A DNA stretch of 64,000 nt from Bdellovibrionales bacterium (GCA_965261545.1 CBDHDF010000004.1:32001-96000), one strand, 5' to 3'. Positions 8,431 to 59,835 are shown, counted from the first letter of the stretch. Made by a program: numbers and translations. The notes: a model not told the origin generated them from the letters alone.

Positions 8431-9417
8431 CTACAAGGCCGTATGGAGGGGGTGAAATTGACTCAAAGCAGTGTATAGGGATTGAAGGTCAAGATGTGTG
8501 TAGCGTTGTGTGGTGTTTAAGGTTTCATGGCCTAGAACCTCTTGTATGACTCTAAGGTCTGCTCCTTCTTGGAGTAAATGAGTGGCAAAGCTGTGTCTGA
8601 GTGTATGGGGAGAAATGGGTTTTATGAGGCCACTTTTCTGTCCCCATCTTTTTACTACGGAATGAGCTGTGCGAGGACTAAGGGATTTCTTGCCAAAAAT
8701 ATATATATTATCCTTTTCTTTCAATTGATTCATATTATTTATAGATTCGAGGGCCATGGGAATAAGTACAACCATGCGCATTTTTCCTCCCTTACCGATG
8801 ATGTGCAAGCATCTTCTTTCGTGGTCAATATCTGACCACTTGGCTGTGCAAGCCTCACCAACTCGGAGTCCACATCCGTATAAGAGAGCAAAAAGCACCA
8901 TGTCTCGGCAAGACGACTTCTCACCCTTCTCCTTGTTTTCTTTTAGTAATGTCAAAATAGATAGGACTTCATCCACAGACAAGTGATGAGGAACCCTCCA
9001 TGGAACTTTTGGGGAGGGGATTCTTAGAGCTAAATTTCTATCTATATATTTCTCATGGAAAAGCCATTTCAAAAAGGCTCGAAGACAGGCAAATTTCCTA
9101 TTTTTTGTGGCGGGGGAAAGAGAGGACCAAAAGGAGAGCATTTGGTTCACTTCTATCAAAAGAGCGGCAGTATTTAATTTAGACTTTTCTTGTAATTTCT
9201 TTTTGGTAAGGGGATGGCGGTATATTTGCCCTCCTATCCGGGGTATTTGGGAGGTGTTTATTTCTTCTACAGTGGATTGGTTGACTTGCTGGAGGAACTG
9301 GTGGAGATCAGTGGCATAGGATTTGATAGTGTTTGGGCGGAATCCATATACAAATTCCTGTGTATTTAGGTATTTAGACGCTAGATAGAATAAGATTTGT
9401 TGCTCTTTAGGTGACAA
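8431..9417 (-). CDS. XerC/XerD-type tyrosine recombinase
   Basis: LLYGCGLRVGE, GKGGKMR, SPHTLRHSFATHLL, LGH...TTQRYTH (R-K-H-R-H-Y catalytic set). Confidence 0.92.
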   Translation of the reverse strand: MSPKEQQILFYLASKYLNTQEFVYGFRPNTIKSYATDLHQFLQQVNQSTVEEINTSQIPRIGGQIYRHPLTKKKLQEKSKLNTAALLIEVNQMLSFWSSLSPATKNRKFACLRAFLKWLFHEKYIDRNLALRIPSPKVPWRVPHHLSVDEVLSILTLLKENKEKGEKSSCRDMVLFALLYGCGLRVGEACTAKWSDIDHERRCLHIIGKGGKMRMVVLIPMALESINNMNQLKEKDNIYIFGKKSLSPRTAHSVVKRWGQKSGLIKPISPHTLRHSFATHLLQEGADLRVIQEVLGHETLNTTQRYTHLDLQSLYTALSQFHPLHTAL

Positions 9418-10939: not shown

Positions 10940-11740
10940 TTAAAAATAACCTCCATCATCGTCATCATCATCATCATCGTCGTCGTCATCTAGATCTGAA
11001 GAATCATCCATGTCATCAAAAATATCTGTGGTTTCAAAGTCATCGCTAGGTTGAAGAGATTCGTCATCGAAATCTTCTTTGATATTATCAAAAAAATTAT
11101 CCTTATCATTTGCATCAATAGAATCAGACCCTTCATTATCATCCTCTAAGTGAGAAGTTTTTTCAGAGATATCTTCTGATGAATCTGTGGAATCGAGATC
11201 CTCCTCCTCTTGGTCATTTTGAGTCGTAAATGTTGTAAAGATGCTTCCTAAATTCCTTGAAGTGGTAGAATTGACGATTTCTTCAAGAGATGGGACTTCT
11301 GGCTTGGCTGATTTCTTTCGCCCTCTTTTTGTGACTTTTTTAGCTACCTTTTTACTAGCTTTTTTCTTGGTGACTTTTTTAGCTACCTTTTTACTAGCTT
11401 TTTTCTTGGTGGCTTTTTTAGCTACCTTTTTACTAGCTTTTTTCTTGGTGGCTTTTTTAGCTACCTTTTTACTAGCTTTTTTCTTGGTGGCTTTTTTAGC
11501 TACCTTTTTACTAGCTTTTTTCTTGGTGGCTTTTTTAGCTACCTTTTTACTAGCTTTTTTCTTGGTGGCTTTTTTAGCTACCTTTTTACTAGCTTTTTTC
11601 TTGGTGACTTTTTTAGCTACCTTTTTACTAGCTTTTTTCTTGGTGACTTTTTTAGCTACCTTTTTACTAGCTTTTTTTTGTCCTTTTTTTGCAAGAGTTT
11701 TTCGTTTGCTAATTTTTTTCTTTGTTTTTTTGCGTCCCAT
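10940..11740 (-). CDS. Histone H1-like Lys/Ala-rich repeat protein with a Asp/Glu-rich C-terminal half
   Basis: Nine copies of KKKASKKVAKK(A/V)T, then an acidic tail ending DDDDDDDDDDDDGGYF; GGAGG RBS upstream of the ATG. Confidence 0.8.
   Translation of the reverse strand: MGRKKTKKKISKRKTLAKKGQKKASKKVAKKVTKKKASKKVAKKVTKKKASKKVAKKATKKKASKKVAKKATKKKASKKVAKKATKKKASKKVAKKATKKKASKKVAKKATKKKASKKVAKKVTKKKASKKVAKKVTKRGRKKSAKPEVPSLEEIVNSTTSRNLGSIFTTFTTQNDQEEEDLDSTDSSEDISEKTSHLEDDNEGSDSIDANDKDNFFDNIKEDFDDESLQPSDDFETTDIFDDMDDSSDLDDDDDDDDDDDDGGYF
11330..11680. repeat. Coding tandem repeat, 39-bp unit x9
   Basis: Unit gtg(a/g)cttttttagctacctttttactagcttttttcttg; units differ essentially only at the Val/Ala codon. 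Confidence 0.95.
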
Positions 11741-12082
11741 TATCCCTCCCGATACAGACTATGAAATGAATTATAAATAAATAGAAAACCTTGTGAAAGT
11801 CTTCTTTAGAACCAGCGCAGAGCCCTCAAAAGTAAGCCCCTCCCTAATAATGAAAAGGCTTTCTTTAAAATGCAAGTCCCCATTTCAAAATGAAAGGTGA
11901 ATTATGGCTCAGCGCATAATTAAAGGGCTTTAATTGACAAACTTTGTTGAGATCACAGTTTATAGCATAACAGGAGTGTTTTCTTTTCAAGCTCATTATT
12001 CAAGGAAAATTTCAAGAGGGAGGCAATATGAACCTTAGGACCCATGATCTTAAAGTGGAAATAAGCTAAAGATGGAAAACCT

Positions 12083-17781: not shown

Positions 17782-18997
17782 TGTCTTATCTCCTGCCAGA
17801 CTTTTTGCTGGGTCTAATGAGGTGATATTTAGTCCATCTTTGGTCTATTTTTGCGAGTAAGGGTCACTTGGAGCTTGGTGAGTTCGCAATTTTTTCTTTG
17901 TTCTGTTCTTCTTTCAGTGGTCATATTACCCTCACGGCAGGCGAGAAGCTTCTCATAAGTAAAGTGAATCATAGAAATAAGCTACAGGCAAAGTTAATTC
18001 GCAGGGTCGAGTTGAATAGGAGGAAAATAGACTCTCTCGCAAAGTCTAGGAATTCAAGTTTGTACTATTTTGTGTCGACAATGACTCAGTGACATAAGTA
18101 AAGTCAAGTAGGTAGGCTTGAGTCCAGAAATTCCCGCCGAGCTTGAAAAAACATTGAAATTCCTCCAAATCTCAGTGTGAGAATTGCACTGCATCGAATA
18201 AGGTAAACCTCCCCGTCTTCGCCATTTAGAGGCGAATGTCCAGACTTTAGTTTAGGGCAAATACGTTAAACTCTTTGGGGCACTTTGAGAAAAATGGCTG
18301 CTCATGATGTGTCGAAAACATCTGAGGCAGCAATAGGCTTAATCCCATAAGCCATTATGGCGAGGAGTTCCTGCCAATTTTTAAAGTATAGGGTATGGAA
18401 ATACCCCCTCATATGATCCCATAGATAAGATGTTAGCTGACAATTAAAATGCCCCACCGTCGCCAATGAAAAGTGGCCACTTTTCAGAGGAGGACCTATG
18501 GTGATTTTTGGCATTGTCAACCGAGACGCATATAATCAATTGATATTACTCATAAAAAGGCTCCGAGCTGATAAGAACTCCTTTTGGGTTCTTGTCGACC
18601 TGGAAAGGGGCTCCGTGTTGGAGAGTCCTTCCATGACAGCCTATTCAGGTTCCATATTTCTCATTTGTAGACTGTTTCTGGATTTCAATGAGGTTAAATA
18701 TATAGTCAAGAAAAGCCTGTTTAGGCTGTGCCCATTTTCTAAAGTATTTAAATTCCACAAGATTCCAACATTTGCCTCAATTTTCATGGAATTTCTTTTT
18801 GAAGACAGGCTTCCCTTAAAGCCGTCGCCAATTAAAATGTCCCACTTTCAATATGGAGGTTGTCGCCAATGAAAAGTGACCAATCTTCAGGGAGTGTTCA
18901 AATACTAGACAATGAAGTCTCTTCTTCTGATATAGATACTAAGCTCACAGAGTCCCTCCCTTTTGCAACTCAAAAGGTTAGCAATGAGGAGGATCTT

Positions 18998-20464
18998 ATG
19001 ATTAGTCAATACACTTTCGGCCGCATTCGTGACCTGAGTCACAGTGGTAAAAATAAGACAGAAATATCTCGTGAATTAGGGATCAATCGTAAGACGGTGC
19101 GCAAGTACTGTAAGTCCAACACCCCACCGAAGTACAAGGCGAGGTCCAAAAGAACTCGCCCAGATCCCCTTAATGGATATATGGATCGGGTGAAGTACTT
19201 TTTGAAGTTGAACCCAAGTAACACCGCCCGTGAAATATATGAGCTATTAGTTGAGGAGGGTTATCGTGGGAGTGAGAGAACGGTTCAGAGAAGAGTTTGT
19301 GAGATTCTTGGTTCTCGCCCCAAGGAGCGTTTTTTCAGCCAAAGATATGATCCTGGAGAACAGGCTCAGTTTGATTTTAAGGAGAAGGTTGCTTTACCAT
19401 TTGCCGATGGTGTTCAGATCGTTCATCTCCATTTTGGAACATTGCCTTGTAGTGGCACCTGTTGGGTTCGTGCCTACCCCTTTCTTGTCTATGAGTGTTT
19501 CATCGATGGGGTGCATGCTTTTTTTGAAAAGATAGGTGGGATGAGTGCGAACATCCGTATTGATAATTTATCTCCCTGTGTGAAGAAAGTTCTTAAAGGA
19601 AATCAGCGAATTTACACCCAATCTTTTGATCGAGCCATCCAATACTATGGATTTAAGGTTCTTCCCTGCCGCGCAGGGAAGGGCTCTGACAAGGGAGATG
19701 TGGAGCGTGATATTCGAACCTTCAGTTCTCGGATAAAAAATATTGTTAGAAACAAAGGAATTGTTTTTAAAGACTGGGATCATTTGAATCAGTTTTTAGA
19801 GTCTTATATGGATCAGCATCAGAGTGACTCCACCAAATCTCGCTTTGAGGAGGAGGCCAAAGTTCTTAAGCCTTTGCCTCCACGAGATGAAGATATTCTC
19901 TGTAAGGTGAATATTTGTCAAAGTAATGGTTATGGGACTTTGAGAATAGGTAAAACCACATATTCCATACCTGATGAGGTGATCCAATCTCCCTGTAAAA
20001 CCGTACAGGGTCCCTATCATGTCACGATCTATCGTGCAGGAGGGAAGCAAGAAATTGTCGCTCGCCATCAAAGAAAACCTGATGGGGAGCATAGTCTTCT
20101 TCTTGAACATATCCTTCCTTCTTTAGTTCGTAAGCCGCAAGCCATGGTAAGATGGGCTCACCGATCCATTCTTTTTCCAACAAATGTGTTTGAAAATTTT
20201 TATCAATACCTCAAGCAACAAGATTCAAGCCGTGCCGAGCATGAATATTTAAGAGTTATCAACTTGATTCAGCATGTGAGTTGGCAGGACTTATCTACAG
20301 CCATGGAGCTTCAATTAGAAAGTCGTGAGATTTTCGACTTTAAATCCATAAAAGATTTGCTCTTAGGAAATCCCACCAAAATTAATTTGAATGACCAACA
20401 AAAACCACTTCAACCTAGATTGTCTCAATATGACAGTCTTGTTCCAAACATAGGAGGTTCTTAA
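18998..20464 (+). CDS. istA: IS21 transposase IstA
   Basis: N-terminal HTH (EISRELGINRKTVRKY), PGEQAQFDF, IDN, KGDVER; GAGGAGG RBS before ATG 18998. Confidence 0.93.
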   Translation: MISQYTFGRIRDLSHSGKNKTEISRELGINRKTVRKYCKSNTPPKYKARSKRTRPDPLNGYMDRVKYFLKLNPSNTAREIYELLVEEGYRGSERTVQRRVCEILGSRPKERFFSQRYDPGEQAQFDFKEKVALPFADGVQIVHLHFGTLPCSGTCWVRAYPFLVYECFIDGVHAFFEKIGGMSANIRIDNLSPCVKKVLKGNQRIYTQSFDRAIQYYGFKVLPCRAGKGSDKGDVERDIRTFSSRIKNIVRNKGIVFKDWDHLNQFLESYMDQHQSDSTKSRFEEEAKVLKPLPPRDEDILCKVNICQSNGYGTLRIGKTTYSIPDEVIQSPCKTVQGPYHVTIYRAGGKQEIVARHQRKPDGEHSLLLEHILPSLVRKPQAMVRWAHRSILFPTNVFENFYQYLKQQDSSRAEHEYLRVINLIQHVSWQDLSTAMELQLESREIFDFKSIKDLLLGNPTKINLNDQQKPLQPRLSQYDSLVPNIGGS

Positions 20465-21246
20465 TGAATCACGAAGAACTTATAGGTTCTCTTAAAAAAC
20501 TCCGACTTCCAGCGATGGCGGATGAATATGTTGCAACGGCTAGAGTTGCCGAAAAAACAAAAAAGACGTATGAACAGTATTTAGGTATACTCGTTCAAAA
20601 TGAGCTTGCTGACAAGCATTCCCAGAGAGTGAAAAGATTGCTTAAGGGGGCCAAGCTTCCTCAACTTAAATCACTCCAAACTTATAACTTCCAGAAAAGA
20701 ACGGGAGTGACAGCTCAGCAAATTAATTGGATGGCAGAGGGAGAGTGGGTCAGAAAAGCCTGTAATGTTGTGTTTTACGGAAGCTTTGGAATGGGGAAAA
20801 GTCATTTGGCCATGTCCCTAGTTCGTTCACTCTGTGAACAAGGCTATCGATGTTTATGGGTCACCACTCATGAACTTATTGAAACAATGCGTGAAAGCAA
20901 GAAAGAACTCTCATTGAATGCTCTTTTTAAGAAATTAGACCGTTTTGATCTTATTGCTTGTGATGAACTTGGCTATACAGCTTCCTGCACAGAGGGGGCA
21001 GATCTTTTCTTTCAATTCATATCTCAGCGATATGAAAGGAAAAGTCTCATGATCACTACAAACTTAACATACTCTGAATGGGATAAGGTGTTTCTTAACC
21101 CTATTACCACCGCTGCTGCTGTTGATCGAATCATTCACAACTGTGAAACCCTCAACATTGAAGGAAAAGAAAGTTGGAGAACCGAATCGGCAAAAGCCAA
21201 GTCTAAACAGAGCAAAGAGGAAAGTTCAACCAAAGAAGTTCATTAG
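20464..21246 (+). CDS. istB: IS21 AAA+ helper ATPase IstB
   Basis: GSFGMGKSHLA Walker A, CDELGY Walker B, ITTNL, AAVDRIIH; coupled to istA by a TAATG overlap. Confidence 0.95.
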   Translation: MNHEELIGSLKKLRLPAMADEYVATARVAEKTKKTYEQYLGILVQNELADKHSQRVKRLLKGAKLPQLKSLQTYNFQKRTGVTAQQINWMAEGEWVRKACNVVFYGSFGMGKSHLAMSLVRSLCEQGYRCLWVTTHELIETMRESKKELSLNALFKKLDRFDLIACDELGYTASCTEGADLFFQFISQRYERKSLMITTNLTYSEWDKVFLNPITTAAAVDRIIHNCETLNIEGKESWRTESAKAKSKQSKEESSTKEVH

Positions 21247-23828
21247 AGATCCCCACTTTTGGGGAAGGAACTCGCCAGTTATCCACAAAATTTATCCACA
21301 GCAGCACTGCGTTGCTAGACATCGGGGTCACAGCCGCAGTGTCGCCATGGATAAATTTATGGATAACTGGCTTTTACCGTACTATTTGCTCGTCACTCTC
21401 GCGGAGCTTTAGACATTAGCTGCGCCAAGGAATCCTGAAAAATACTCCATTTACCTCTGCCATAGGGCTGAAGGATGCATTTGGGGTCATGCCAAAAGTG
21501 GTGGGCAGAAAATCATTCCTCAGAATCTTGTGGCATAGTCCGAGTTAAATGATGAGCAAAATAAAGACACTTGACTAAACTCTGAACGAAGAATAACTAA
21601 ATCAGTACATCATCAACTGGCCGTTTTTCATTGGCGACGGCTTCTAAAAATGGCCAATTTTAATTGGCGCCTAACATAAGATAGTCTCCTCTCTTTTTCT
21701 ACCGCCTTTTGAAACAATTTACAGGCCAAATGTTGAAGTTGGTCCACTAAAAATACCAGCATCATAATCACGGCTAAATTGTTACACAAATTTTGCTTGC
21801 CGTGGCCAAAATTGTGCTCAAAGTTGTAACCCAAATTCTTTAACGTATTAAATGTTTCATTTTCTATCTTCCAGCGTGCTCTTCCCCCCCTCATTATTTG
21901 CATTATGTTGTCTTCGTTGATCTCAATGTCAGTCACCCAGCTAAAGTGCTGAACCTTACCGTTTGCTTTCGTTTCTTTGTATTCAATAAAATTCACTCGA
22001 CAATCAGGATTTGAATCATTGAGTGAAACATCATTTATGAATCGAAATTCATGTGTCACTCCATTCTCTACCACGGTGAAGTGAGAAACTGTTCCTAAGC
22101 TATCTGCTCCATTTACAAACTCAAATAAAACTTTGTGGTCCCCCATCTTACAGCCTAAAATATAACTTAATTTTAATTCGTTAAGAAGAGTGATGTGAGG
22201 AGCATTGGAAGCCAATCCATCCTCAATAACAATCACTGGAAGGTGAGGGTGTTCCCTGCGAAAATCTTCAAGGAGTCGTTTGGCTGCATTACGCTCACAA
22301 TCATTTTTGCTCGATCCATCTGTGTTTGAAATGGGCTCTGGAGCAATAGGTATAACCTGTTTCTTATCGGGGTGAACAATCACTCCTGCTAACATTTGAT
22401 GATAGTAGGTCTTCGTCTCATCACGATGATTCTTTATACAACAATTCTCACAATGAATAGTCGAGGAGCTAAAGGCACCTGTTCCATCAATGCTGAGAAG
22501 ATATTTTCCACCCAAATATGGGTAACCCTCCAAAACCTTCCCTCTTTGAGCTACGGTAAACAAAGATTTAAAAAAATTTTGAAACTCACGGGTTGGAACA
22601 GGATCTAAAATCTCTCGCATAGCCGTATCACTAGGAATTTGGCCTATTTGAAACAAATGGTGTAGGTTGTTTTTTGCCACTGGGTCATGGACACGATCAC
22701 AAAACTGAAGCATGGATGGATCTTTCAAGGCAAACATTGCCACAGATGACATAATGGCATCGCTCAGAGGAATCCTATGGGGACGCTGCGATCTTATATC
22801 TGGAACTGCAAGAGATTTACTGTGTAGCAGGGAATACATTCCTGAAGCGGATAGACCTTTTCTAAAATGTTGATGCGACATGACGAACCCTCCTTGGTCT
22901 GATGTGCAACAACAAATATTCAAACAGATACTTAGGCAAAAGTCTACGAACTCTTTTTGAGGCGAATCTTTTGGAAGCCACTACTGTGGCCTAAACTATT
23001 TTTCGACGGGAATTGCTGGCTTGAGTCAATGAGACTAAGGTTGATTCAGATAGTGGGTGAGTTTATGGCTTCAAGTCAATGGCTAAAGAGGGCAAGAGTT
23101 AAGTAAAGTGCCGCCAAAGCAAAAAATGAAAGGAGATCAAAAAATGAAAGGAATGAAACCCATGAGGTCCATGAGACCTTTATTGCTTTTGTGGTTATTG
23201 TCACTGTTGATGGTTCTGCCTTCATGTGCCTTTTTGAGCAAAGAGAGTCGAATGAACAAAGAGGGCAAAGTGAGCCGAGAGAGTCAAGACAAAGGTCTGA
23301 ATCAGAATCAGAATCATACAAATCCATCAGGGGACTCTGCACCTCTATCTACATTACATCATCTACACCAGAAGACCGTACCGCTTCCTACAAGGCTGTG
23401 GTTCGTTCGTAAGCATGAAGAAAAGATGAGGCGAATCACCCTAAAATCAGGAGGCCGACTCCAGTTACCCCATGGATCTGGCTTCCAAGGTCATTATAGT
23501 TCCCATGGCGGCCATGGTTCCCACAGTGGACCTCGTGGATCTCGTTCTCATGGTACGAAAAGAGGTGATAATGATAAGGGTGACAAAAGAAGGCCCTCTT
23601 CTGTGAATCTTGTAGGCCCCGATGGTGATGTGATTTTATTTTATAAAGAAAAAAGCCAACAAGGTGAAGATAAGATTGTGATCCAAGAGTGTGAAGTGGG
23701 TTCTGTTATAGATGAGGTGAGTGATTGCCAGCGGCCCCATGGTGCACTTATAAGAATAATCCCTGTGAGTGACTTTAAGCGTCGCCTTCAATCCGTGCTA
23801 AGAGTTGATGAGCTTCCTACCCTAGGCC

Positions 23829-25239
23829 CAATGCCGTTTCCTTAAGAAAAATCTCTTGAAATCATTAGATAAATCGACAAGAATAAGACTTGTTTTATTT
23901 TACACCCAACCCTCAACCAAGGAGTAAGTCACATGCAATCCAATATTGATCTCGAAAGCCCCCAAATGACGAGTTCGCGTCACAGATGACCATTTTATTC
24001 TACCAAAACTTGATTCTTCCTTCAAGCCAGAGCACCTTGTCGATCCAGAAAAACAAAAAAGGAATCGAAAATTTAATCCTCAAATTTTCTTTTTTACCAT
24101 TATCTATCTTATTTCAGGAACAAATTACGAAGGCTACCAAATCGCTCTTAAGACGGTATGGACTCATTTTGGTGACCTGCTTCTCATGCCAGTCAAAAGC
24201 AGTCTCAGCAAGATACGTCAAAGTATTTCTTACCTATTTTTCAAAGATATCTTTGAATCTCTGATTACAGACTACGAACCATTGAGAAAAACGTTTCATG
24301 GTTTTTATATCTATGCCATAGATGGCGACCAATTAGCACTTCCTCGCTCTAAAGATCTTTTAAAGGAGGGTTATTGTGGGTACCCTTGCCCAAATGAGAT
24401 GGAAACTCATTTCTTACGTATGTATCTATCTCATGCTTATGACGTTTTATCGGGTGTGACAAAGAATCTTTGCTATTCTCCCGCTCTCAACGAAATCGCC
24501 AATGCTATTCAAATGATAGGTAGTTTTGAGAGTAATAGCATAACTCTCTACGATAGGCTTTATTTATCTACAGAGATTATTAAGGCCCATGCTCAAGCCA
24601 GTAACTTCTTTATTGCGCGTTGTAAGCGAGGCTCTACTTTTATCCCCATCGTAAATTTATTTAATGGCCCAGGTTGGTATTCACAAATGGTTATTGAGGG
24701 GGTGGTCATTCATCTCTATAAGTATAAAAACCCAAAGACTGGGGAGTTCTCTGTTTTGGCCACTAATCTTCCGCATGGCTCCTTGGACAAGAAGGATATG
24801 GTTGCTCTTTACTCTCGTCGTTGGGAAATAGAAACGACATTTCGTGATTTTACATCGACAATGAAAATGGAGCAGTGGCACTCAACAAGCCTTAATGGAA
24901 TATTGCAAGAGCTGTATTCTTATTTTTGGCTCTTCAATTATACAAAGATTCAAATGAGCATAAATGAGGATGAAGACAGTGTGAATCAGTTGGTGAAAAA
25001 TGACTACAAAAAACCTAACTTTAAACTGATTCTTGATTTCATAATGGATAGCATCCCTCTTTTTGTTGCGGGGCTCTATCAGAAATTTAGGAAGCAGATA
25101 AAGTTGCTGATGAAGATTTCAATGGAGAAGAGGAGGCACTTCAAAAGAAGCTATGAAAGGTCTATCAAAAGGGCTGGGAGTTCTTTTAAAAGAAATAGCT
25201 TAACGCAGAGGGGTGTGGTGGCTTAAGGAAACGGCATTG
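23829..25239 (+). mobile_element. IS4-family insertion sequence (1411 bp) inside the DGR target gene
   Basis: Perfect 18-bp IRs caatgccgtttccttaag / cttaaggaaacggcattg; 10-bp TSD accctaggcc at 23819-23828 and 25240-25249. Confidence 0.95.
23933..25226 (+). pseudogene. IS4-family DDE transposase with an apparent frameshift near the 5' end
   Basis: YAIDGD, LYDRLY, YSRRWEIETTFR. The ATG at 23933 (AAGGAG RBS) is in a different frame from the long frame open from 23970 to 25226. Confidence 0.8.
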
Positions 25240-26256
25240 ACCCTAGGCCCCAAAGAGGCTCGGCAGGTCAAAGCCTATAAAGAGGGCGGGGAAGCTCCCC
25301 GTTTCCATGACCTCGTTCGACAAAGAGATGAGGCCCAGGAAAAGGTCTCAGGCATAGAAAAGTTCATAGACGCCTATGGAGAAGAAAATGCAGGATCTCT
25401 TATAAAAAAATTAGCTGCCTTAAGAAAAAACCTTGAAGAACTTGACTCAAAAATTGACAGCAGGCAGGAGTTCGCTTCTGCCGTGAGTGCTCTGAACGGA
25501 GTCATTGAGAGCTTAGTGGATGAAGTGATAGGAAGCCCTCGGATGAACACTCGTCTTTATTCAAAAGACAAAACAGGTATTGAATACAGTGTTTTGAGAG
25601 CCTATGTGAGACCAACATTGTCTCATGGTTTTGTCCCCGTGTCTGCAGGTTCTTTCATCATGGGGAGTCCTAATACTGAAAAAGGTCGAGATTCGGATGA
25701 GACCCCTCATGAAGTAACAATTTCTAAGCCCTTTGAAATAGGCACCACAGAGGTGACTCAATGGCAGTGGTTTGTTGTGATGGGGACAAATCCTTCAAAA
25801 TTCCAAGAAAAAGAGTATTGCCCAGAAAGTTATATGGAACAAGATGGAGTTTCAATGTGTGCCGATCATCCTGTGGAGAGAGTGTCTTGGGAGGACGTCC
25901 AAGAATTTATAAGGGAGTACAATCGTAGGGCAAAAGAGACCCACGGCAACGAATATGAATACCGTTTGCCTACGGAAGCGGAGTGGGAATTTGCAGCCAG
26001 GGGTGGTGCAAAAGCAGGCACAAAAACAGCCTATTCCTTTGGTGACAATCCTTCAGAACTTAAAAACTATGGTTGGCATCAGGGGAACTCTCGATCTCGA
26101 TTTGGCAAACAAAGCCGACAATCAAGGTCCGTGGGATTGCTGAGCCCCAATCCCCTAGGGCTTTATGATGTTCATGGAAATGTGTGGGAATGGGTCGAAG
26201 ACTGGTATAAGAGGAAATATCCTGAAGGTCCTGTCACAGACCCTAGAGGTCCGAAA

Positions 26257-26381
26257 AATGGCTCTTACCGTATTGTACGTGGTGGCGGTTGGAACGGCTA
26301 CGCTCGCTCCCTGCGCTCTTCCAATCGTGGCTACGATCGGCCTGGTAATCGCTGGAACGTTATCGGTTTCCGCCTTGTGAG
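26257..26381 (+). repeat. DGR variable repeat (VR) at the 3' end of the target gene
   Basis: Ungapped 125-bp match to 28446-28570 with 14 mismatches, all opposite TR adenines. Confidence 0.97.
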
Positions 26382-26427
26382 GACGCCTATGTAACCCCTT
26401 TGCCCTTTTACACTTTTACCCTTTTCC

Positions 26428-26540
26428 AGGCGAAGCGAAGCGAGCCTCAGCGTGCCAGCCGTCAGGCTGGGCACAAGGCAAGAAGGAAGGAGAGGGAAAG
26501 GCTGAGCCCGCGGAGCGTGGCGAAAGCCAACCCTCTCTCC
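26428..26540 (+). promoter_or_regulatory. GC-rich hairpin cluster downstream of VR (candidate retrohoming cis-element)
   Basis: ccagcc-gtca-ggctgg (26455-26470, extendable with gtgc/gcac), tggc-gaaa-gcca (26518-26529), overlapping GCGAAGC units. Confidence 0.65.
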
Positions 26541-26569: not shown

Positions 26570-27079
26570 ATGTTAATCAAAGTCATATCCTTGTCTTTTA
26601 ATTCGGCTCTTGGTGGTTTTGATGATGATGAAGTGAGAGAGTTTTTAAAAGATAAGGAGCTTGTTTCTTCTCGTGATTATCTATTTGTGAAGAATGAAAC
26701 ACCATATTTAGTTTTTGTACTTAAGTATTGCCCGGTTGCTCAGGATGTAGTTAAAAGTAGGTCCATCCAAAAAGAAAGAAGCTGGAAGAAGTCTTTATCT
26801 GAACACGAGATGGGATTGTTTAATTTATTAAGAGATTGGAGATCGCAGCGTTGTAAGAAAGATGGTATTCCTCCTTATGTAGTTTTAACAAACCAGCAGA
26901 TTGCTGACATAGTAAAAAGGCGACCTCAAACGCTATCAGATTTAGTTAAAATTGATGGTATAGGAAAAAATAGAGTAGACAAATATGGAAAAGATATCTT
27001 ATCCATTTCAAAGGTTATAGTTCGTGATGTTTTAAAGGACGATTCAAGTGAGTTATCAGAGCAAGAATGTTCTTCATAA
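26570..27079 (+). CDS. HRDC-domain protein (DGR-associated accessory gene)
   Basis: LFNLLRDWRSQRCKKDGIPPYVVLTNQQIADIVKRRPQTLSDLVKIDGIGKNRVDKYGKDIL is a typical HRDC pattern. Confidence 0.9.
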   Translation: MLIKVISLSFNSALGGFDDDEVREFLKDKELVSSRDYLFVKNETPYLVFVLKYCPVAQDVVKSRSIQKERSWKKSLSEHEMGLFNLLRDWRSQRCKKDGIPPYVVLTNQQIADIVKRRPQTLSDLVKIDGIGKNRVDKYGKDILSISKVIVRDVLKDDSSELSEQECSS

Positions 27080-27425
27080 AAATAAAGAAGATTTAATTAT
27101 TTTTATAAAGTGGGTAGACTTTGTGAAGTGGTTATTTGTAGCGATTGATAAATTTCCTAAGAAAACTAGATTTACTTTTGTAGATCATCTTACAAATCTA
27201 TCATTACTTATTGTAGAAGATATGGTTGAAGCTCGTTATAATAAGAATAAAATATTCATTCTTAAAAGAATGAATATAAATCTTGAAAAATTGAGAATTT
27301 TATTGCGGATTTGTTTTGAACTCAAGATGATGTCACAAAAGTCCTATGAATACTCTTCTAGATCAATAAATGAGGTAGGAAAAATGATTGGTGGATGGAT
27401 GAAGCAGCAGGAGTCTCTTCTATGA
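27048..27425 (+). CDS. avd: DGR accessory variability determinant (Avd-like four-helix bundle)
   Basis: 125 aa basic protein with KFPKKTRFTF, LEKLRILLRIC, INEVGKMIGGW; its stop overlaps the RT start (ATGA). Confidence 0.9.
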   Translation: MSYQSKNVLHKNKEDLIIFIKWVDFVKWLFVAIDKFPKKTRFTFVDHLTNLSLLIVEDMVEARYNKNKIFILKRMNINLEKLRILLRICFELKMMSQKSYEYSSRSINEVGKMIGGWMKQQESLL

Positions 27426-28435
27426 AGAGAATTGGAAATATTTTTGAGGAATTAACAACCTTTGATAACCTTTTGTTAGCATCAAAAAAAGCTATGAGAA
27501 GGAAAAGAAATAAAAAACCAATATCAGAATTTTACTTTAATCTTGAGAATGAAATATTTGAAATACAAAATGAATTGATCCAAAAAACCTATCGTCCAGG
27601 CCCATATATACAATTTGAAATTAGAGAACATAAGCGAAGATTAATTTGTAGTTCGAATTTTAGAGATAGGGTGGTTCACCATTCTATTTGTAATTATTGC
27701 GATCCTGTGTTTGAAAAAAGATTTATATTTGATAGTTACGCTTGTCGCCCTGGTAAAGGAGCTCATTCTGCAGTTAGGAGATGTCAGAAATTTTCTAGAA
27801 AATTTAGGTATTTTCTGAAGTGCGATATAAAGAAATTCTTTCATAGTATAAATCATGACATTTTAAAAGAATTATTGAGAAAGAACTTTAAAGATGAAGA
27901 TTTTTTGAATCTATTGGATTTAATTATTGATAATAAGGTGCCTGGCAATTTGGATAGAATGGGTCTCCCCATAGGGATTCTCACAAGTCAGAATTTTGCT
28001 AATTTTTATTTAGATTATTTGGATCATTTTGTTAAAGAACATATCAGAATTCCGAGCTACCTACGTTATATGGATGATTTTATATCATTTTCAAATGATA
28101 AGTATGAACTAAATAAATATCATCAAAAAATAGAAGGATTTCTTGCAGAAACTCTGAATCTTAGCCTTAAAGAAAGAGTAACTAAGCTAGCTCCTGTGTC
28201 AGAGGGCATTCCCTTTCTTGGTTTTAATATTTATCCATCAATCGTTAGAATCAAGCGAGAAAATTTGGTGCGAATGAGAAATAAAATAAGGCGCAAAGAA
28301 GAAGAATATATTAAAGGGATCATTTCCGAGAGATCACTCGTTCAATCTGTTAATAGTGTGATTGGTCACGTTGCCCATGTTAATTCTAAGGAGGTGAGAA
28401 AAGATATTTTTACAAGTTCTTTAAAAATGGCGTGA
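27422..28435 (+). CDS. DGR reverse transcriptase (337 aa)
   Basis: MKRIGNIF start, [50 protein letters not shown] (DGR-type GxxxSQ), [15 protein letters not shown]; frame intact. Confidence 0.95.
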
Positions 28436-28445
28436 TGATCATTTT

Positions 28446-28570
28446 AATGGCTCTAACCGTATTATACGTGGTGGCAGTTGGAACAACAACGCTCGCAACC
28501 TGCGCTCTTCCAATCGTAACAACGATCGGCCTGATAATCGCTGGAACAATATCGGTTTCCGCCTTGTGAG
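28446..28570 (+). ncRNA. DGR template repeat (TR)
   Basis: Intergenic, AAC/AAT-rich copy of VR starting 10 nt after the RT stop; 12 AAY codons in the VR reading frame. Confidence 0.96.
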
Positions 28571-43722: not shown

Positions 43723-44890
43723 CCCGAGTTTGACAGCAGCATCTGCGTCAAACGAATGATATTAAAGGATTAACGCATATAGTTGTATTTTGTTTATCCA
43801 CACTTGTGGGCATTAAGGATTCTGGGAGGGATGGGGACGCCTGCGGCTTTAAATAAGGAGTTGGCATTGCCAGTGATATCTGTGCGGGTCCAAATGACTT
43901 GATCACGAATTTTAACAGGGATAGCCCTAACTTCCTTGAGTTCCCTCATGGCCTCTACAACAGTTAAAGGTCGCTCTTTAACATGACCAATGCCTATGGC
44001 TGGGCTTTTTAGTTCATCTTCTTATCTCTTAAACATTTTGTAAGGTGGGCCTCACAAAGATAAGTTAAAAAGCATAGAGTTAAATGTCCAATAATCCTCT
44101 GGTCTGTCCAATGGAAAACAGGACGTGTTTTCAAAGTCCCTTTTAACTCACCAAAAGCATCTTCAATTTTCCACAATTCTTTGTAGTTGATAATAATCTC
44201 ATCTGCCGTCAAGTCTTTGACATTTGTAAGGACGGCAAAAAAACCATCAATTTTTTCATCTAATTCTATTTGTTCTGCATTTAATTCAGGTTTTTTATTT
44301 TTGTCGTCAGCCATCTTTACATATGTTAGCTGACAATTAAAATGCCCCACCGTCGCCAATGAAAAGTGGCCACTTTTCAGAGGAGGACCTATGGTGATTT
44401 TTGGCATTGTCAACCGAGACGCATATAATCAATTGATATTACTCATAAAAAGGCTCCGAGCTGATAAGAACTCCTTTTGGGTTCTTGTCGACCTGGAAAG
44501 GGGCTCCGTGTTGGAGAGTCCTTCCATGACAGCCTATTCAGGTTCCATATTTGTCATTTGTAGACTGTTTCTGGATTTCAATGAGGTTAAATATATAGTC
44601 AAGAAAAGCCTGTTTAGGCTGTGCCCATTTTCTAAAGTATTTAAATTCCACAAGATTCCAACATTTGCCTCAATTTTCATGGAATTTCTTTTTGAAGACA
44701 GGCTTCCCTTAAAGCCGTCGCCAATTAAAATGTCCCACTTTCAATATGGAGGTTGTCGCCAATGAAAAGTGACCAATCTTCAGGGAGTGTTCAAATACTA
44801 GACAATGAAGTCTCTTCTTCTGATATAGATACTAAGCTCACAGAGTCCCTCCCTTTTGCAACTCAAAAGGTTAGCAATGAGGAGGATCTT

Positions 44891-46357
44891 ATGATTAGTC
44901 AATACACTTTCGGCCGCATTCGTGACCTGAGTCACAGTGGTAAAAATAAGACAGAAATATCTCGTGAATTAGGGATCAATCGTAAGACGGTGCGCAAGTA
45001 CTGTGAGTCCAACACCCCACCGAAGTACAAGGCGAGGTCCAAAAGAACTCGCCCAGATCCCCTTAATGGATATATGGATCGGGTGAAGTACTTTTTGAAG
45101 TTGAACCCAAGTAACACCGCCCGTGAAATATATGAGCTATTAGTTGAGGAGGGTTATCGTGGGAGTGAGAGAACGGTTCAGAGAAGAGTTTGTGAGATTC
45201 TTGGTTCTCGCCCCAAGGAGCGTTTTTTCAGCCAAAGATATGATCCTGGAGAACAGGCTCAGTTTGATTTTAAGGAGAAGGTTGCTTTACCATTTGCCGA
45301 TGGTGTTCAGATCGTTCATCTCCATTTTGGAACATTGCCTTGTAGTGGCACCTGTTGGGTTCGTGCCTACCCCTTTCTTGTCTATGAGTGTTTCATCGAT
45401 GGGGTGCATGCTTTTTTTGAAAAGATAGGTGGGATGAGTGCGAACATCCGTATTGATAATTTATCTCCCTGTGTGAAGAAAGTTCTTAAAGGAAATCAGC
45501 GAATTTACACCCAATCTTTTGATCGAGCCATCCAATACTATGGATTTAAGGTTCTTCCCTGCCGCGCAGGGAAGGGCTCTGACAAGGGAGATGTGGAGCG
45601 TGATATTCGAACCTTCAGTTCTCGGATAAAAAATATTGTTAGAAACAAAGGAATTGTTTTTAAAGACTGGGATCATTTGAATCAGTTTTTAGAGTCTTAT
45701 ATGGATCAGCATCAGAGTGACTCCACCAAATCTCGCTTTGAGGAGGAGGCCAAAGTTCTTAAGCCTTTGCCTCCACGAGATGAAGATATTCTCTGTAAGG
45801 TGAATATTTGTCAAAGTAATGGTTATGGGACTTTGAGAATAGGTAAAACCACATATTCCATACCTGATGAGGTGATCCAATCTCCCTGTAAAACCGTACA
45901 GGGTCCCTATCATGTCACGATCTATCGTGCAGGAGGGAAGCAAGAAATTGTCGCTCGCCATCAAAGAAAACCTGATGGGGAGCATAGTCTTCTTCTTGAA
46001 CATATCCTTCCCTCTTTAGTTCGTAAGCCGCAAGCCATGGTAAGATGGGCTCACCGATCCATTCTTTTTCCAACAAATGTGTTTGAAAATTTTTATCAAT
46101 ACCTCAAGCAACAAGATTCAAGCCGTGCCGAGCATGAATATTTAAGAGTTATCAACTTGATTCAGCATGTGAGTTGGCAGGACTTATCTACAGCCATGGA
46201 GCTTCAATTAGAAAGTCGTGAGATTTTCGACTTTAAATCCATAAAAGATTTGCTCTTAGGCAATCCCACCAAAATTAATTTGAATGACCAACAAAAACCA
46301 CTTCAACCTAGATTGTCTCAATATGACAGTCTTGTTCCAAACATAGGAGGTTCTTAA
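44891..46357 (+). CDS. istA: IS21 transposase IstA (copy 2)
   Basis: Same translation as copy 1 except YCKS->YCES. Confidence 0.93.
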   Translation: MISQYTFGRIRDLSHSGKNKTEISRELGINRKTVRKYCESNTPPKYKARSKRTRPDPLNGYMDRVKYFLKLNPSNTAREIYELLVEEGYRGSERTVQRRVCEILGSRPKERFFSQRYDPGEQAQFDFKEKVALPFADGVQIVHLHFGTLPCSGTCWVRAYPFLVYECFIDGVHAFFEKIGGMSANIRIDNLSPCVKKVLKGNQRIYTQSFDRAIQYYGFKVLPCRAGKGSDKGDVERDIRTFSSRIKNIVRNKGIVFKDWDHLNQFLESYMDQHQSDSTKSRFEEEAKVLKPLPPRDEDILCKVNICQSNGYGTLRIGKTTYSIPDEVIQSPCKTVQGPYHVTIYRAGGKQEIVARHQRKPDGEHSLLLEHILPSLVRKPQAMVRWAHRSILFPTNVFENFYQYLKQQDSSRAEHEYLRVINLIQHVSWQDLSTAMELQLESREIFDFKSIKDLLLGNPTKINLNDQQKPLQPRLSQYDSLVPNIGGS

Positions 46358-47139
46358 TGAATCACGAAGAACTTATAGGTTCTCTTAAAAAACTCCGACT
46401 TCCAGCGATGGCGGATGAATATGTTGCAACGGCTAGAGTTGCCGAAAAAACAAAAAAGACGTATGAACAGTATTTAGGTATACTCGTTCAAAATGAGCTT
46501 GCTGACAAGCATTCCCAGAGAGTGAAAAGATTGCTTAAGGGGGCCAAGCTTCCTCAACTTAAATCACTCCAAACTTATAACTTCCAGAAAAGAACGGGAG
46601 TGACAGCTCAGCAAATTAATTGGATGGCAGAGGGAGAGTGGGTCAGAAAAGCCTGTAATGTTGTGTTTTACGGAAGCTTTGGAATGGGGAAAAGTCATTT
46701 GGCCATGTCCCTAGTTCGTTCACTCTGTGAACAAGGCTATCGATGTTTATGGGTCACCACTCATGAACTTATTGAAACAATGCGTGAAAGCAAGAAAGAA
46801 CTCTCATTGAATGCTCTTTTTAAGAAATTAGACCGTTTTGATCTTATTGCTTGTGATGAACTTGGCTATACAGCTTCCTGCACAGAGGGGGCAGATCTTT
46901 TCTTTCAATTCATATCTCAGCGATATGAAAGGAAAAGTCTCATGATCACTACAAACTTAACATACTCTGAATGGGATAAGGTGTTTCTTAACCCTATTAC
47001 CACCGCTGCTGCTGTTGATCGAATCATTCACAACTGTGAAACCCTCAACATTGAAGGAAAAGAAAGTTGGAGAACCGAATCGGCAAAAGCCAAGTCTAAA
47101 CAGAGCAAAGAGGAAAGTTCAACCAAAGAAGTTCATTAG
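46357..47139 (+). CDS. istB: IS21 helper ATPase IstB (copy 2)
   Basis: Identical translation to 20464-21246. Confidence 0.95.
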   Translation: MNHEELIGSLKKLRLPAMADEYVATARVAEKTKKTYEQYLGILVQNELADKHSQRVKRLLKGAKLPQLKSLQTYNFQKRTGVTAQQINWMAEGEWVRKACNVVFYGSFGMGKSHLAMSLVRSLCEQGYRCLWVTTHELIETMRESKKELSLNALFKKLDRFDLIACDELGYTASCTEGADLFFQFISQRYERKSLMITTNLTYSEWDKVFLNPITTAAAVDRIIHNCETLNIEGKESWRTESAKAKSKQSKEESSTKEVH

Positions 47140-47750
47140 AGATCCCCACTTTTGGGGAAGGAACTCGCCAGTTATCCACAAAATTTATCCACAGCAGCAC
47201 TGCGTTGCTAGACATCGGGGTCACAGCCGCAGTGTCGCCATGGATAAATTTATGGATAACTGGCTTTTACCGTACTATTTACTCGTCACTCTTGCGGAGC
47301 TTTAGACATTAGCTGCGCCAAGGAATCCTGAAAAATACTCCATTTACCTCTGCCATAGGGCTGAAGGATGCATTTGGGGTCATGCCAAAAGTGGTGGGCA
47401 GAAAATCATTCCTCAGAATCTTGTGGCATAGTCCGAGTTAAATGATGAGCAAAATAAAGACACTTGACTAAACTCTGAACGAAGAATAACTAAATCAGTA
47501 CATCATCAACTGGCCGTTTTTCATTGGCGACGGCTTCTAAAAATGGCCAATTTTAATTGGCGCCTAACAACATATTTCTTATAACCTTTATTGGAAACAA
47601 AAGTACTAGACTGAACACCTTTAGAAGATAGTTTTCCTTCGATCTTTTCAAGAAGGGATTCTCTAGATTTTTTATCTCTCTCTGCTCTTTTCCTAGACCA
47701 AGTCACAATACATCTATGCCCCCCATGGTCTGTTTCGTAAACAGCAAGCT

Positions 47751-54809: not shown

Positions 54810-55280
54810 GTGTTCAGAGTATTCAGATGGATCATTGCAGGGTTGATTGCCTTTGCTGTGGGGGGGTTAGGAGGGTGTGCAAGTCATAGGGGCTTTTTAG
54901 TTCTTAGGGATATAGACAAACCTTTGAGAGGGATTCAAAAAGTGGTGAGTCAGAGCTTTCCTGAAGGTCCAGCTAAGGTTCAAAGAGGGGGGCGTCTTTT
55001 TATATCAAAGCCCATGGTGATGGAGGAGGGAATTCTGGTGTCTGCAAGCCCGGAGGCTAGGCATCGCTTTTATGTGAAGATTTTTATACGCGGAGGCCAG
55101 AGACCCTACACCCTCAATATTGAAGCGATTGAAGAGAGAAAGTCGAATCGTGATGGGGACAGATTCCAAGTGATAGGGCGCAGTGATAAGATTGCTCAGA
55201 GCATGACCAAGGTTATTTATAAGAGACTCAGACAGCAGCATGAAGAGAATAATATCATTGATAATTTTCGTCCATTTTAG
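54810..55280 (+). CDS. Hypothetical lipoprotein
   Basis: Signal ending LGG-C; GAGG RBS; C-terminal IIDNFRPF. Confidence 0.6.
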   Translation: MFRVFRWIIAGLIAFAVGGLGGCASHRGFLVLRDIDKPLRGIQKVVSQSFPEGPAKVQRGGRLFISKPMVMEEGILVSASPEARHRFYVKIFIRGGQRPYTLNIEAIEERKSNRDGDRFQVIGRSDKIAQSMTKVIYKRLRQQHEENNIIDNFRPF

Positions 55281-55417
55281 TTTCAAAATTTTAACTTGAG
55301 TCATTTACTGTGTGGTCATTTTTTATAAATACCTCATATCACTTGAGGATATGTCTTTTTATGATCTTTTTGTGGCGTTCAAATTTAGATCGTCTCTTCG
55401 GTGCTCCCTCCGCCTTC

Positions 55418-56377
55418 CTATCGGCCTCTTTCAAGGCGTGCTATGCGCTCCTCAAGGGGGGGGTGGGTTGAAAATAGTTGAAGCAGCTTGCTTCTTTTTT
55501 GGGCCCCAGCAATTTTGAGAGTGGCCATGGCTTGGTCGCCACTTACAAGGTGCTGGGTGTGGCTGAGCGCTCTTAGGGCTGATATCATTTTATCTCGACT
55601 GGTCAGCTTGGCTCCACCTCGATCCGCACGAAATTCTCTTCGACGTGAATAATAGTTGACAACAATGGAGCCCAAAATACTGAAGATAATTTGAAGAACA
55701 ATGATGGTGACCAATTGTGCAATCCAGCTGAACCTCTCGTCCATCTGGCTGGCGATAATGCGTGCAATGATATGAGCAAGAAACATAACGAGCGCATTAA
55801 TAATACCTTGTATAAGGGTCATGGTGACCATGTCACCATTGGCGATATGGGCCACTTCGTGGGCTAAGACGGCTTCTACTTCATCTCTGTCAAGTTGGTT
55901 TAAAAGTCCTGTGGAAACAGCGACGAGGGAGTTACTTTTAGAAGGACCCGTGGCGAAGGCATTGACTTCTTCCCCCTGGTAAATGCCTACCTCTGGCATT
56001 TTGGGAAGGCGGGCCGCTTTGGCGATGCGGTGAACTGTGTTGACAAGTTCGCACATTTGAGGGTCTGTGGCGTTGGGATCAATGACTTGAATGCGCATCA
56101 TCCACTTTGCCATTTTTTTAGAAATGAGAAGGGAAATAAAAGCGCCCCCCATTCCAAAGAAGACACAGAAAATGGCGAGACCACCATAGCCAGAGGCTTC
56201 GATGCCAAAATAAAGCGAGATAAGGCTCCAGCTGATAACAAGTGTTGTCATTACTAAAATGTTGACTATGAGAAAAAGAAATATTCGCCTACCCATCATC
56301 CACATAATAATTCCTCCGTTTTTTGAGTCAATTCGATTGGTGCTTGCCTGTCTACTGCCTACTTGTTGTTTGTCCAT
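55418..56377 (-). CDS. htpX: Zn-dependent membrane protease HtpX (true start probably MWMMGRR, about 56305)
   Basis: NAFATG, VAVSTGLL, AHEVAH, NGDMVTMTL, SRRREFRAD, FSTHPPLEERI. Confidence 0.95.
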   Translation of the reverse strand: MDKQQVGSRQASTNRIDSKNGGIIMWMMGRRIFLFLIVNILVMTTLVISWSLISLYFGIEASGYGGLAIFCVFFGMGGAFISLLISKKMAKWMMRIQVIDPNATDPQMCELVNTVHRIAKAARLPKMPEVGIYQGEEVNAFATGPSKSNSLVAVSTGLLNQLDRDEVEAVLAHEVAHIANGDMVTMTLIQGIINALVMFLAHIIARIIASQMDERFSWIAQLVTIIVLQIIFSILGSIVVNYYSRRREFRADRGGAKLTSRDKMISALRALSHTQHLVSGDQAMATLKIAGAQKRSKLLQLFSTHPPLEERIARLERGR

Positions 56378-56381
56378 TGGG

Positions 56382-57281
56382 CTAATCCATAGATTTTCCC
56401 ATTTGAACGGCTTGCCCTGCTAGAAGCATTAAAAGAGCAATAATTATACCTGCAATGATAATAAATCTTAAATAGTCTGTCCAGTCAAAGTCTGCGGTTT
56501 CTAGTTGAGGTATCTCTTTTTGGGGGGCGGCGCGTAGTGGAATACGAGTTTTCTTGGCGTCGCTTTGATCCTTGGCTTTCACAGAAGAGCGGCGATTTTC
56601 TTCTTCCTCACTTTTTTTCTTGGGATTTCGAATCCATTTCACTCTCACGGATCGGCCTTGTTCGTAGTTGTCGTCAAAATTTTGTCCCTGACGGCCTTTT
56701 TTAATCGCACCTATGGGGCCGACGGAGAGTCCCTCTGAGTTTTCGTCGCTTTCACTTGATTTCTTTGATTGGTTAGAAGAAATAATCTTGTTATTTAGGG
56801 TTCTCCCTGTTCGCGAAGACGAGATTTTTGATTCCCCACTTCCGCCCCGACTCCTTTGGCGTCCACGACGGGTTTTTGGGCGAAAGCGACGGCGAGATGT
56901 CGCTGAGTTTCCATCGCCATTGCTCCTGGATTGTCCCAATTGAGTGCGAGAGCTATTTGTATTTTTGTCCGACAAAGGAGGGCGTCCAGCGAGAAAGCTA
57001 AACTCTTGAAATTCGTCATTGCAAAAGCCTGGCGATTCAGACTCATCCACTCCTAGACTAGGCAGTTCTCCCGTTTCCAAAAGACAGGAGAGGTAGTTGC
57101 CAAAGTAGTTGTCGGCAAAAACCTTAAAAGCTTTGTTAAATTGCAGGATAAGGCCAAGGGTTATACCTACGGTCACAACAAGTATAAGAATATATTCTAC
57201 GACAGCTTGGCCAGAGTCTGATCTTATTTTTGTTTTTGGCCTCATCATTGTTTCTGCTGAAGGTTGTTTATAGAAGTTCAT
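56382..57281 (-). CDS. TadE/pseudopilin-like protein with low-complexity middle and C-terminal TM helix
   Basis: SGQAVVEYILILVV prepilin-like cleavage motif; divergent from flp. Confidence 0.7.
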   Translation of the reverse strand: MNFYKQPSAETMMRPKTKIRSDSGQAVVEYILILVVTVGITLGLILQFNKAFKVFADNYFGNYLSCLLETGELPSLGVDESESPGFCNDEFQEFSFLAGRPPLSDKNTNSSRTQLGQSRSNGDGNSATSRRRFRPKTRRGRQRSRGGSGESKISSSRTGRTLNNKIISSNQSKKSSESDENSEGLSVGPIGAIKKGRQGQNFDDNYEQGRSVRVKWIRNPKKKSEEEENRRSSVKAKDQSDAKKTRIPLRAAPQKEIPQLETADFDWTDYLRFIIIAGIIIALLMLLAGQAVQMGKSMD

Positions 57282-57757
57282 CCTCTTATTTATCGGTATT
57301 TATGTTTAACTTATATGCTCAACTTAACAGTTTCTACATAGTTTCTATTTTTATAGAGTTCCTGTATATTTCTATATATTTTTATGAATTGTTTCAACTT
57401 GATACAGTATTGATACAGAATGAAGAAAAATAAAAAAATTAATAAAAAAGTCTTGTCAAATCTTTTTTTTATGTTTATATTATTTATATAACATTCACGT
57501 TTATCTCCCACGGCGATAGTCCGTTTCCTAATCAGGTTTGTAAATAACCTGACACACTTTACTCTATAATCATTAACTATAATGTATTTACATTTTGAAC
57601 ATAGGATATCGCAAAACTTTAGTTAGCCAAGATTGTACAAAATCATTTATGTCTCAATTTGTAAATACCGAAAAGATAAGTGCCAAGGTTCTTTAATTTA
57701 AGGATTAACTTAATAAGGGTTAAAGAATCACTGGCCATATATACGAGGGGGTATATT

Positions 57758-57943
57758 ATGAAAAAAATCAACAAAACTCTTGCTGCGATTTGGAAGGATG
57801 AGTCAGGACAGGGAGCCACTGAATATATTTTATTACTTGTCGTCATTGTTGGTTTAGCAACTCTTTTTGGTGAGCGTATTAAACAGGCTGTTACAGATAA
57901 GATCAATGAGGTTTCTGGGCTTATTTCAGGCTTCAGCAACTAA
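57758..57943 (+). CDS. flp: Flp family type IVb/c pilin (61 aa)
   Basis: KDESGQGATEYILLLVVIV Flp motif; GAGGGGG RBS. Confidence 0.9.
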   Translation: MKKINKTLAAIWKDESGQGATEYILLLVVIVGLATLFGERIKQAVTDKINEVSGLISGFSN

Positions 57944-58108
57944 AGCTAAAAGTTGGGGGTCTTGTTGCGTGACTGCTCTCTCCCTCTTTTGCTGAATAAA
58001 GTCCTTGGAGCTTAAGAGTCATTCCTCATGTGGTGAATTGAAGCGAATTGGTTTTGAGTGAACCAGTGATGAATTTTAAGGACAGTTTAAGTAAGTAGGG
58101 GGATTGTC

Positions 58109-59832: not shown

Positions 59833-59835
59833 GAA

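Follow-up and report, generated by a model that had tools for sequence, protein, structure and literature searches.

A probable multi-target DGR in a Bdellovibrionales bacterium, with its cassette-adjacent putative lipoprotein gene split by an IS4-family element

The window analysed here, 64,000 nucleotides from a Bdellovibrionales bacterium (GCA_965261545.1, CBDHDF010000004.1:32001-96000; positions are counted from its first letter), very probably holds a chromosomal DGR equipped with both HRDC and Avd, in which one template repeat (TR) and one reverse transcriptase (RT) diversify dispersed lipoproteins in trans, and the copy adjacent to the cassette has recently been split by an IS4-family element. 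In DGRs, the RT acts with Avd to copy TR RNA with errors at adenines, and the cDNA replaces the variable repeat (VR) of the target. We propose that a single TR and RT would here serve a dispersed family of near-identical exported lipoproteins, each predicted to consist of a lipid anchor, a flexible linker, a disulfide-capped β/helical-hairpin stalk and a C-terminal CLec domain, the binding surface of which would be rewritten at TR adenines. The cassette-adjacent copy, apparently cut by one of many IS4 insertions in a genome-wide IS burst, can give no full protein; no damage is apparent in the TR, RT, avd or hrdc of its cassette, and a further two target copies seem whole. We infer lipidation, outer-membrane display, the disulfide, ligand binding and present-day activity; lipoprotein export and surface display would be as for Legionella LdtA.

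The locus has the order target-hrdc-avd-RT-TR. The HRDC accessory gene (26570-27079, + strand; PF00570, E = 8e-21) is followed by avd (27048-27425, +; NF033474, 108.3 bits against a cut-off of 80), the RT, an open frame with a YMDD motif (27395-28435, +; RVT_1, E = 5e-21), and the TR (28446-28570, +), the sole TR that BLAST returned from the assembly. The VR (26257-26381, +) sits at the 3′ end of a gene encoding a CLec fold (PF03781) and shares its 3′ end, where IMH and IMH* were sought, with the TR, identity stopping at 26381 and the sequences diverging beyond. The TR contains 32 adenines and 18 variable codons, with about 10^17.8 stop-free protein variants. All 14 substitutions that separate the window VR from the TR fall at TR adenines, as do all 89 when the six VRs of the genome are taken together, and since these 89 trace to the adenines of the single assembled TR, one template appears to serve dispersed targets. 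The rest of the gene diverges by 2.5% per copy, a level at which the VRs would be expected to show about 14 non-adenine changes, an estimate that takes no account of the VR scaffold being under stronger selection or subject to gene conversion; none was observed, which suggests that, once the copies had diverged, their VRs were rewritten from this TR. This A-specific repeat pair, together with TvpA as the best solved relative of the target, agrees with the sequence-only reading of a DGR target of the TvpA type.

Small indels are present in three of the six VRs; the text of a 2018 survey describes VR indels for about 7% of DGRs, as a by-product of active ones (PMC5758913). Behind the window VR, a pyrimidine tract precedes a GC-rich hairpin with a 6-bp stem and a 4-nt loop (26455-26470, +), a candidate cis element by comparison with known DGRs, in which a GC-rich hairpin follows the VR (PMC3240598); it lies about 75 nt away, its loop is not GRNA, and it does not stand out from shuffled sequence (z = -0.9). 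A promoter scan of weak power (20 sites found against 14.2 expected) returned no promoter-like site between the target and hrdc.

The target in the window is a single gene divided by the IS4 insertion. Removal of 23829-25249 leaves, as the sequence-only reading had proposed, one continuously open frame of 609 codons from the ATG at 23144; counted from the GTG at 23108, it has 621 codons. Its further claim that the ORFs at 23108-23845 and 25213-26394 are one gene is borne out by five same-genome paralogs that run uninterrupted across the site, by uninterrupted homologues of 490-540 aa with 44-54% identity over the N-terminal domain (N-domain) and by an intact cassette in a Bdellovibrionota metagenome-assembled genome (MAG); wherever related genomes were consulted, as that reading had recommended, all paralogs and full-length homologues are continuous. 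Its statement that there is no other lesion holds in part: the frame remains open, but a compensating pair of frameshifts lies in the linker and a second IS ends 126 bp upstream of the target ATG. The frameshift pair (23350-23404, +, limits approximate) is self-cancelling and private to the split copy, with about 18 linker codons in a different frame relative to the four other copies translated through the region; near 23401 this copy has gained a 4-nt duplication that none of the other five shares, and an indel close by compensates for it. We set aside relaxed selection on the split copy, the 5 synonymous and 13 non-synonymous private changes of which are not clearly unlike those of the other copies.

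The inserted element (23829-25239, +; 1411 bp) belongs to a set of 73 full-length copies genome-wide and has the features of the IS4 family: an IS4-type DDE transposase matching NF033592 (127.7 bits, cut-off 115), perfect 18-bp terminal inverted repeats (23829-23846 and 25222-25239) and a target duplication of about 10 bp. Direct repeats at 23819 and 25240 share 11 matching letters, one of which is the first base of the IS, so the duplication proper is 10 bp (23819-23828 and 25240-25249). A 10-bp duplication flanks 46 of the 73 full-length copies; a further 7 show a match of 11 letters, and 20 show none. The element departs from the family in that the start codon and the transposase frame are out of register, as also in 8 of 8 informative relatives: the transposase reading frame (23970-25226, +; 418 codons) offers its first ATG, GTG or TTG only at codon 73. 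An upstream SD-ATG lies in a frame other than that of the transposase. Intact inverted repeats and duplication, from which a recent event had been argued, are by themselves a weak clock for insertion age; that the insertion is recent is upheld by a single mismatch over 1411 bp to the nearest sibling copy, and it is therefore young relative to the IS burst. IS4 insertion into the target is, as such, a routine event.

The protein architecture proposed from the sequence alone is recovered in full, namely an LPS-C lipobox-like motif, a G/H/S-rich stretch, two Cys, a helical hairpin and an FGE-sulfatase domain. The 5′ part of the gene (23144-23828, +) encodes the signal peptide, a low-complexity and G/H/S-rich linker and the start of the N-domain, and gave no match in Pfam or NCBIfam; the 3′ part (25250-26394, +) encodes the remaining N-domain, with its helical hairpin, and the FGE-type CLec domain (about 25627-26382, +; FGE-sulfatase, PF03781, E = 1.6e-51). 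Our own pattern test finds a basic n-region, a hydrophobic h-region and a lipobox Cys at codon 28 (23225-23227, +), in keeping with the lipoprotein claim; the Pro at -2 is atypical of a lipobox. Applied to the 11 distant homologues (P0007-P0017), the same pattern test finds the lipobox Cys in 6 and a hydrophobic signal without Cys in the other 5. The CLec domain finds its best solved relative in TvpA (PDB 2y3c, E = 1.2e-26).

The N-domain, inside which IS4 cuts, is an unannotated two-Cys/helical-hairpin region of about 200 aa. Its two Cys (codons 183 and 195 in the split target) are invariant in all 66 aligned sequences. A first full-length model from 15 sequences was set aside (pLDDT 46.5), and a model of the N-domain itself (residues 151-350 of the intact C2 copy; pLDDT 91.8, pTM 0.80) has a small β-sheet bearing the two Cys, followed by helices that include a long helical pair. 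The N-domain had no match in Pfam or NCBIfam, no usable match in Atlas and no Foldseek match at E ≤ 0.001, and the top matches of a VIA fold search (Z = 8.1 at most) were generic helical hairpins that cover just residues 76-154, the β part being barely tested; these searches do not amount to a demonstration of a new fold. The domain is common to 68 protein clusters, in which the 67 further representatives carry FGE (30), Lcl_C (6), LRR (1), a weak LemA (1) or no domain (29), and most members have, by eye, a signal-like N terminus, with or without Cys. The N-domain may be a display stalk. Lcl_C, the type of domain to which it is fused in 6 of these 67 homologues, is a class that we take to be the same as DUF1566. 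The G/H/S stretch matched no NCBIfam model and the G/H/S-rich linker is confined to the lineage of this organism.

Five further target copies, 92-96% identical in DNA, and one 5′ fragment are found in the same genome, with remote VRs on other contigs in four cases and about 52 kb away in one. C11 (621 aa) and C2 (606 aa) are whole, giving two intact-looking copies of six; the VR of C2 has lost 3 nt at one place and gained 3 nt at another, and its downstream tract is removed by an IS21 element about 10 bp behind the stop. C7a is missing 19 residues of the CLec domain and its VR is locally shifted, C7b has a 2-nt deletion in the VR, and C4b has two 1-nt indels. C4b is the target of a second, damaged cassette, in which an IS splits hrdc and the RT is frameshifted. 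As this cassette extends past the start of contig C4, a second TR may be unassembled; its single-base indels could be assembly errors. The fragment, C5, is cut by the same IS4 at a different place. The importance implied by the sequence-only description of a knockout is thus not sustained: the genome is saturated with IS elements and, besides the fragment, has six copies of the gene, two of them intact-looking; the pattern points to family decay within an IS burst and not to loss of a unique function. A VR-like stretch on C10, which lies behind a stop, has 6 gaps and differs at A in 14 of its 22 changes, was judged a remnant and excluded from the 89 substitutions. Proteins P0002 and P0003, considered as IS-free alleles of the split copy, are closer to C2 and C11. 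The targets probably spread by duplication from the cassette: part of hrdc is still attached at the end of C7b and C11, and C2, C5 and C11 adjoin near-identical integrase genes.

Outside this genome, an N-domain search returned 17 proteins, of which 11 (P0007-P0017) are 44-54% identical and 491-536 aa long; each of the 11 has an FGE domain in the same chain. The named Bdellovibrionota MAG, in which our scan of named genomes returned its only locus, has the same target-hrdc-avd-RT-TR order with an intact 504-aa lipoprotein target, and all 19 of its TR/VR changes are at A. Of 300 other genomes of the order, 36 gave matches to the family alignment at E ≤ 1e-60, mostly to the FGE domain only; ten of these 36 were chosen for long or multiple matches, and five of the ten had an RT match at E < 1e-60. 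Genome G027 has paralogs, but this query found no DGR RT in it, so the family is seemingly not always DGR-linked. Genome G124, of the same order and another family, has an RT of 73% identity, one TR and 13 VR-like matches. One of the 13 is adjacent to the cassette, ten terminate remote genes that are intact (six of them long, the others without the stalk), one is on a fragment and one is decayed. Its ten intact remote targets compare with a maximum of seven non-adjacent targets in the text of the 2018 survey (PMC5758913), which later surveys may exceed. Named relatives of the RT include Bdellovibrionales and Bacteriovoracia.

The main competitor of a working system is that the whole DGR is dead, the IS insertions having stopped transcription of hrdc-avd-RT-TR and left six VRs as frozen relics in a host-restricted, weakly selected lineage, and we hold this to be a real if lesser possibility. 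The IS4 element or the upstream IS may silence these genes. The latter (21676-23018, - strand) is the right-hand portion of a DDE-type IS that occurs in several copies, has no assigned family and contains a nested IS21 element (about 18430-21671); it replaces upstream DNA common to the other five copies, including a divergent rpn-type gene that they keep. Damage to four of six copies (the IS4 split, C4b, C7a and C7b) besides the cut fragment, the IS21 behind the C2 stop, the broken second cassette and a genome that is 43% repeats (counted from 300 bp upwards at 95% identity) all fit such decay. Against it, the RT, avd, hrdc and TR of the window carry no visible lesion, the VRs have accumulated no non-A substitution, and VR indels are a described by-product of DGR activity (PMC5758913). 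There is little chance, by comparison, that IS4 acts as a reversible switch whose precise excision restores the adjacent target in part of the population. The intact duplication and inverted repeats would permit clean restoration, and in four runs from a single sample contigs bridge the insertion site. Their joint, however, fits only 8 letters on both sides, as a paralog allele does, against 11 for the window allele, and so neither demonstrates nor rules out excision. The genome has 73 full copies of the IS in 4.3 Mb and their target consensus is loose, so that a chance hit suffices; C5 is a second copy cut by the same IS elsewhere.

Two readings of the coding region weigh less still. It is highly improbable that the halves are separate genes, or that the downstream ORF gives a working protein of 393 aa which lacks a signal and begins in the IS end: gene callers do list its product (P0006), and a GTG inside the IS, at 25213, shares the frame of the 3′ part, but this GTG is IS-borne, recurs at the C5 copy and would be in frame one time in three by chance, and the cut falls inside one folded domain; separate genes in the ancestral state are refuted by the continuous paralogs and homologues. 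Least credible of all is that the C-terminal domain is an FGE/PvdO/GldK-group enzyme instead of a binding domain, as its Pfam FGE-sulfatase assignment and weak matches to PvdO, GldK and EgtB models might imply. These NCBIfam hits all lie far below cut-off, the active-site Cys pair of formylglycine-generating enzymes is absent from the target, and the segment bearing it in those enzymes aligns to the randomised VR, which has no Cys in the split copy or the TR.

The preferred reading, a DGR acting in trans on dispersed targets, makes this a further Treponema-type multi-target DGR. As presented in PMC4891356 and PMC5758913, the Treponema denticola system of TvpA and its paralogs likewise has one TR and RT, an HRDC gene, FGE-type CLec targets that are dispersed and remote, lipoprotein signals (predicted ones here) and some damaged targets. 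It differs in host, the present one being of Bdellovibrionales, in that the cassette here has both hrdc and avd, in that the targets here are about twice as long with a stalk of about 200 aa that has no Pfam or PDB match, and in that the paralogs here are 92-96% identical, some lying in integrase-excisionase repeats. Legionella LdtA, in the survey text, is a lipoprotein target, as predicted for the present one, with a C-terminal VR and is surface-exposed, but it is of the DUF1566 class and carried on an ICE, whereas the target here is FGE-type (PMC5758913). The MAT fibre adhesins of Bdellovibrio bacteriovorus, compared here by description only, are surface proteins of the same order with diverse tips and a part in prey recognition; they are outlined as trimeric fibres diversified as chimeras, with no RT mechanism (PMC10769870).

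A multi-copy DGR in the Bdellovibrionales lineage seems undescribed: our literature search found no report of DGRs in Bdellovibrionota, nor any link between the two in the portions covered of PMC5758913 (main text and one supplement), PMC8144416, PMC11661182 and PMC11656739, although large supplementary tables (for example, of PMC8144416 and PMC11661182) may list such RTs. The system places a Treponema-like multi-target DGR, with intact copies, in bacteria of a predatory order, where prey recognition is an open question, and it defines an unannotated, confidently modelled stalk domain. Scans confined to RT-adjacent targets would score it dead, though its template appears to serve remote genes. 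Prey or host recognition by the variable lipoprotein is plausible. More speculatively, and with a good deal of doubt, Bdellovibrionota might have their own DGR lineage, which would maintain hypervariable surface lipoproteins of lectin fold, dispersed over 6 to 12 genes in each genome and mounted on a new stalk, and would serve to retune prey or host recognition as an antibody-like complement to the fixed MAT adhesins, with the stalk a general display module for FGE-type, Lcl_C-type or LRR tips.

The host belongs to Bdellovibrionales, a predatory order, judging by its DnaA, for which six of seven matches with an organism name are Bdellovibrionales or Pseudobdellovibrionaceae and one is labelled Calothrix. 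IS bursts are typical of recently host-restricted bacteria, and here the 73 full IS4 copies in 4.3 Mb, with fragments, make up 4% of the genome. Sponge-associated Bdellovibrionota have been described (PMC9944714). The genome retains flagellar genes and 11 secretion/pilus-type ATPase matches.

The transposase of the IS4 element that splits the DGR target has, in its own frame, its first ordinary start only at codon 73, and an ATG, in most cases with a Shine-Dalgarno-like motif ahead of it, lies just before the conserved transposase N terminus, one base out of frame (window 23933-23990; loci L082-L088 and L091; G000:C2:599724, in the host genome). All 73 full-length copies share this out-of-register arrangement, as does every one of the eight informative relatives, which are 31–45% identical (nine were examined, one of them masked; two partial loci were left out); one relative carries an in-frame TTG at codon 14. 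A candidate explanation is programmed +1 frameshifting that takes place in codons 1 to 5; a literature search on the IS4 start and frame arrangement found no description of it.

In G124, a Bdellovibrionales genome of another family, the TR (locus L071, ~11002-11125; core VR at 8627-8753) has a stop codon at the position that is Trp in 11/11 well-matched remote VRs, and the cassette-adjacent VR, which is truncated, has the same stop. We suggest from the sequence that this stop would be a mutation of the template, with which retrohoming would poison the targets. A pyrimidine-rich tract directly 3′ of the target stop (window 26395-26425) is common to the cassette-adjacent targets of three genomes (loci L071, L028 and L108) and is a candidate cis element. 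Another genome, G027, has paralogs in which the stalk domain is duplicated, within tandem arrays of FGE-domain lipoproteins (L026 7314-11485); no DGR reverse transcriptase was found there with the query used.

Two DGR cassettes on one contig of the host genome (C4:1-8600 and 55000-60600) flank dnaA at ~22–25 kb on each side, both oriented away from it. A decayed VR-like remnant was observed at C10:751850-751970 (L008 6850-6970), lying in frame past the stop of the gene that comes after fliA.

Repeats account for 43% of bases across this whole genome, and families with at least ten copies for 28%; its IS load is extreme among Bdellovibrionales genomes. Two IS21 copies lie in the window (18430-21671 and 44323-47533), the first nested, with a 5-bp duplication, inside a DDE element of unassigned family upstream of the target. 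Some 22 near-identical rpn-type genes are present, many of them arrayed at C2:279000-381000. A small HTH gene and a tyrosine integrase are repeated in tandem with varying cargo at C11:132000-154000, C2:783500-788200, and on C5 and C10, with tRNA-Cys fairly close by. One such cargo comprises rpn, a DGR target and the start of a neighbouring gene, also present behind C7b, a further target copy. The window additionally holds a Lys-rich ORF with a 39-bp tandem repeat (11250-11756).
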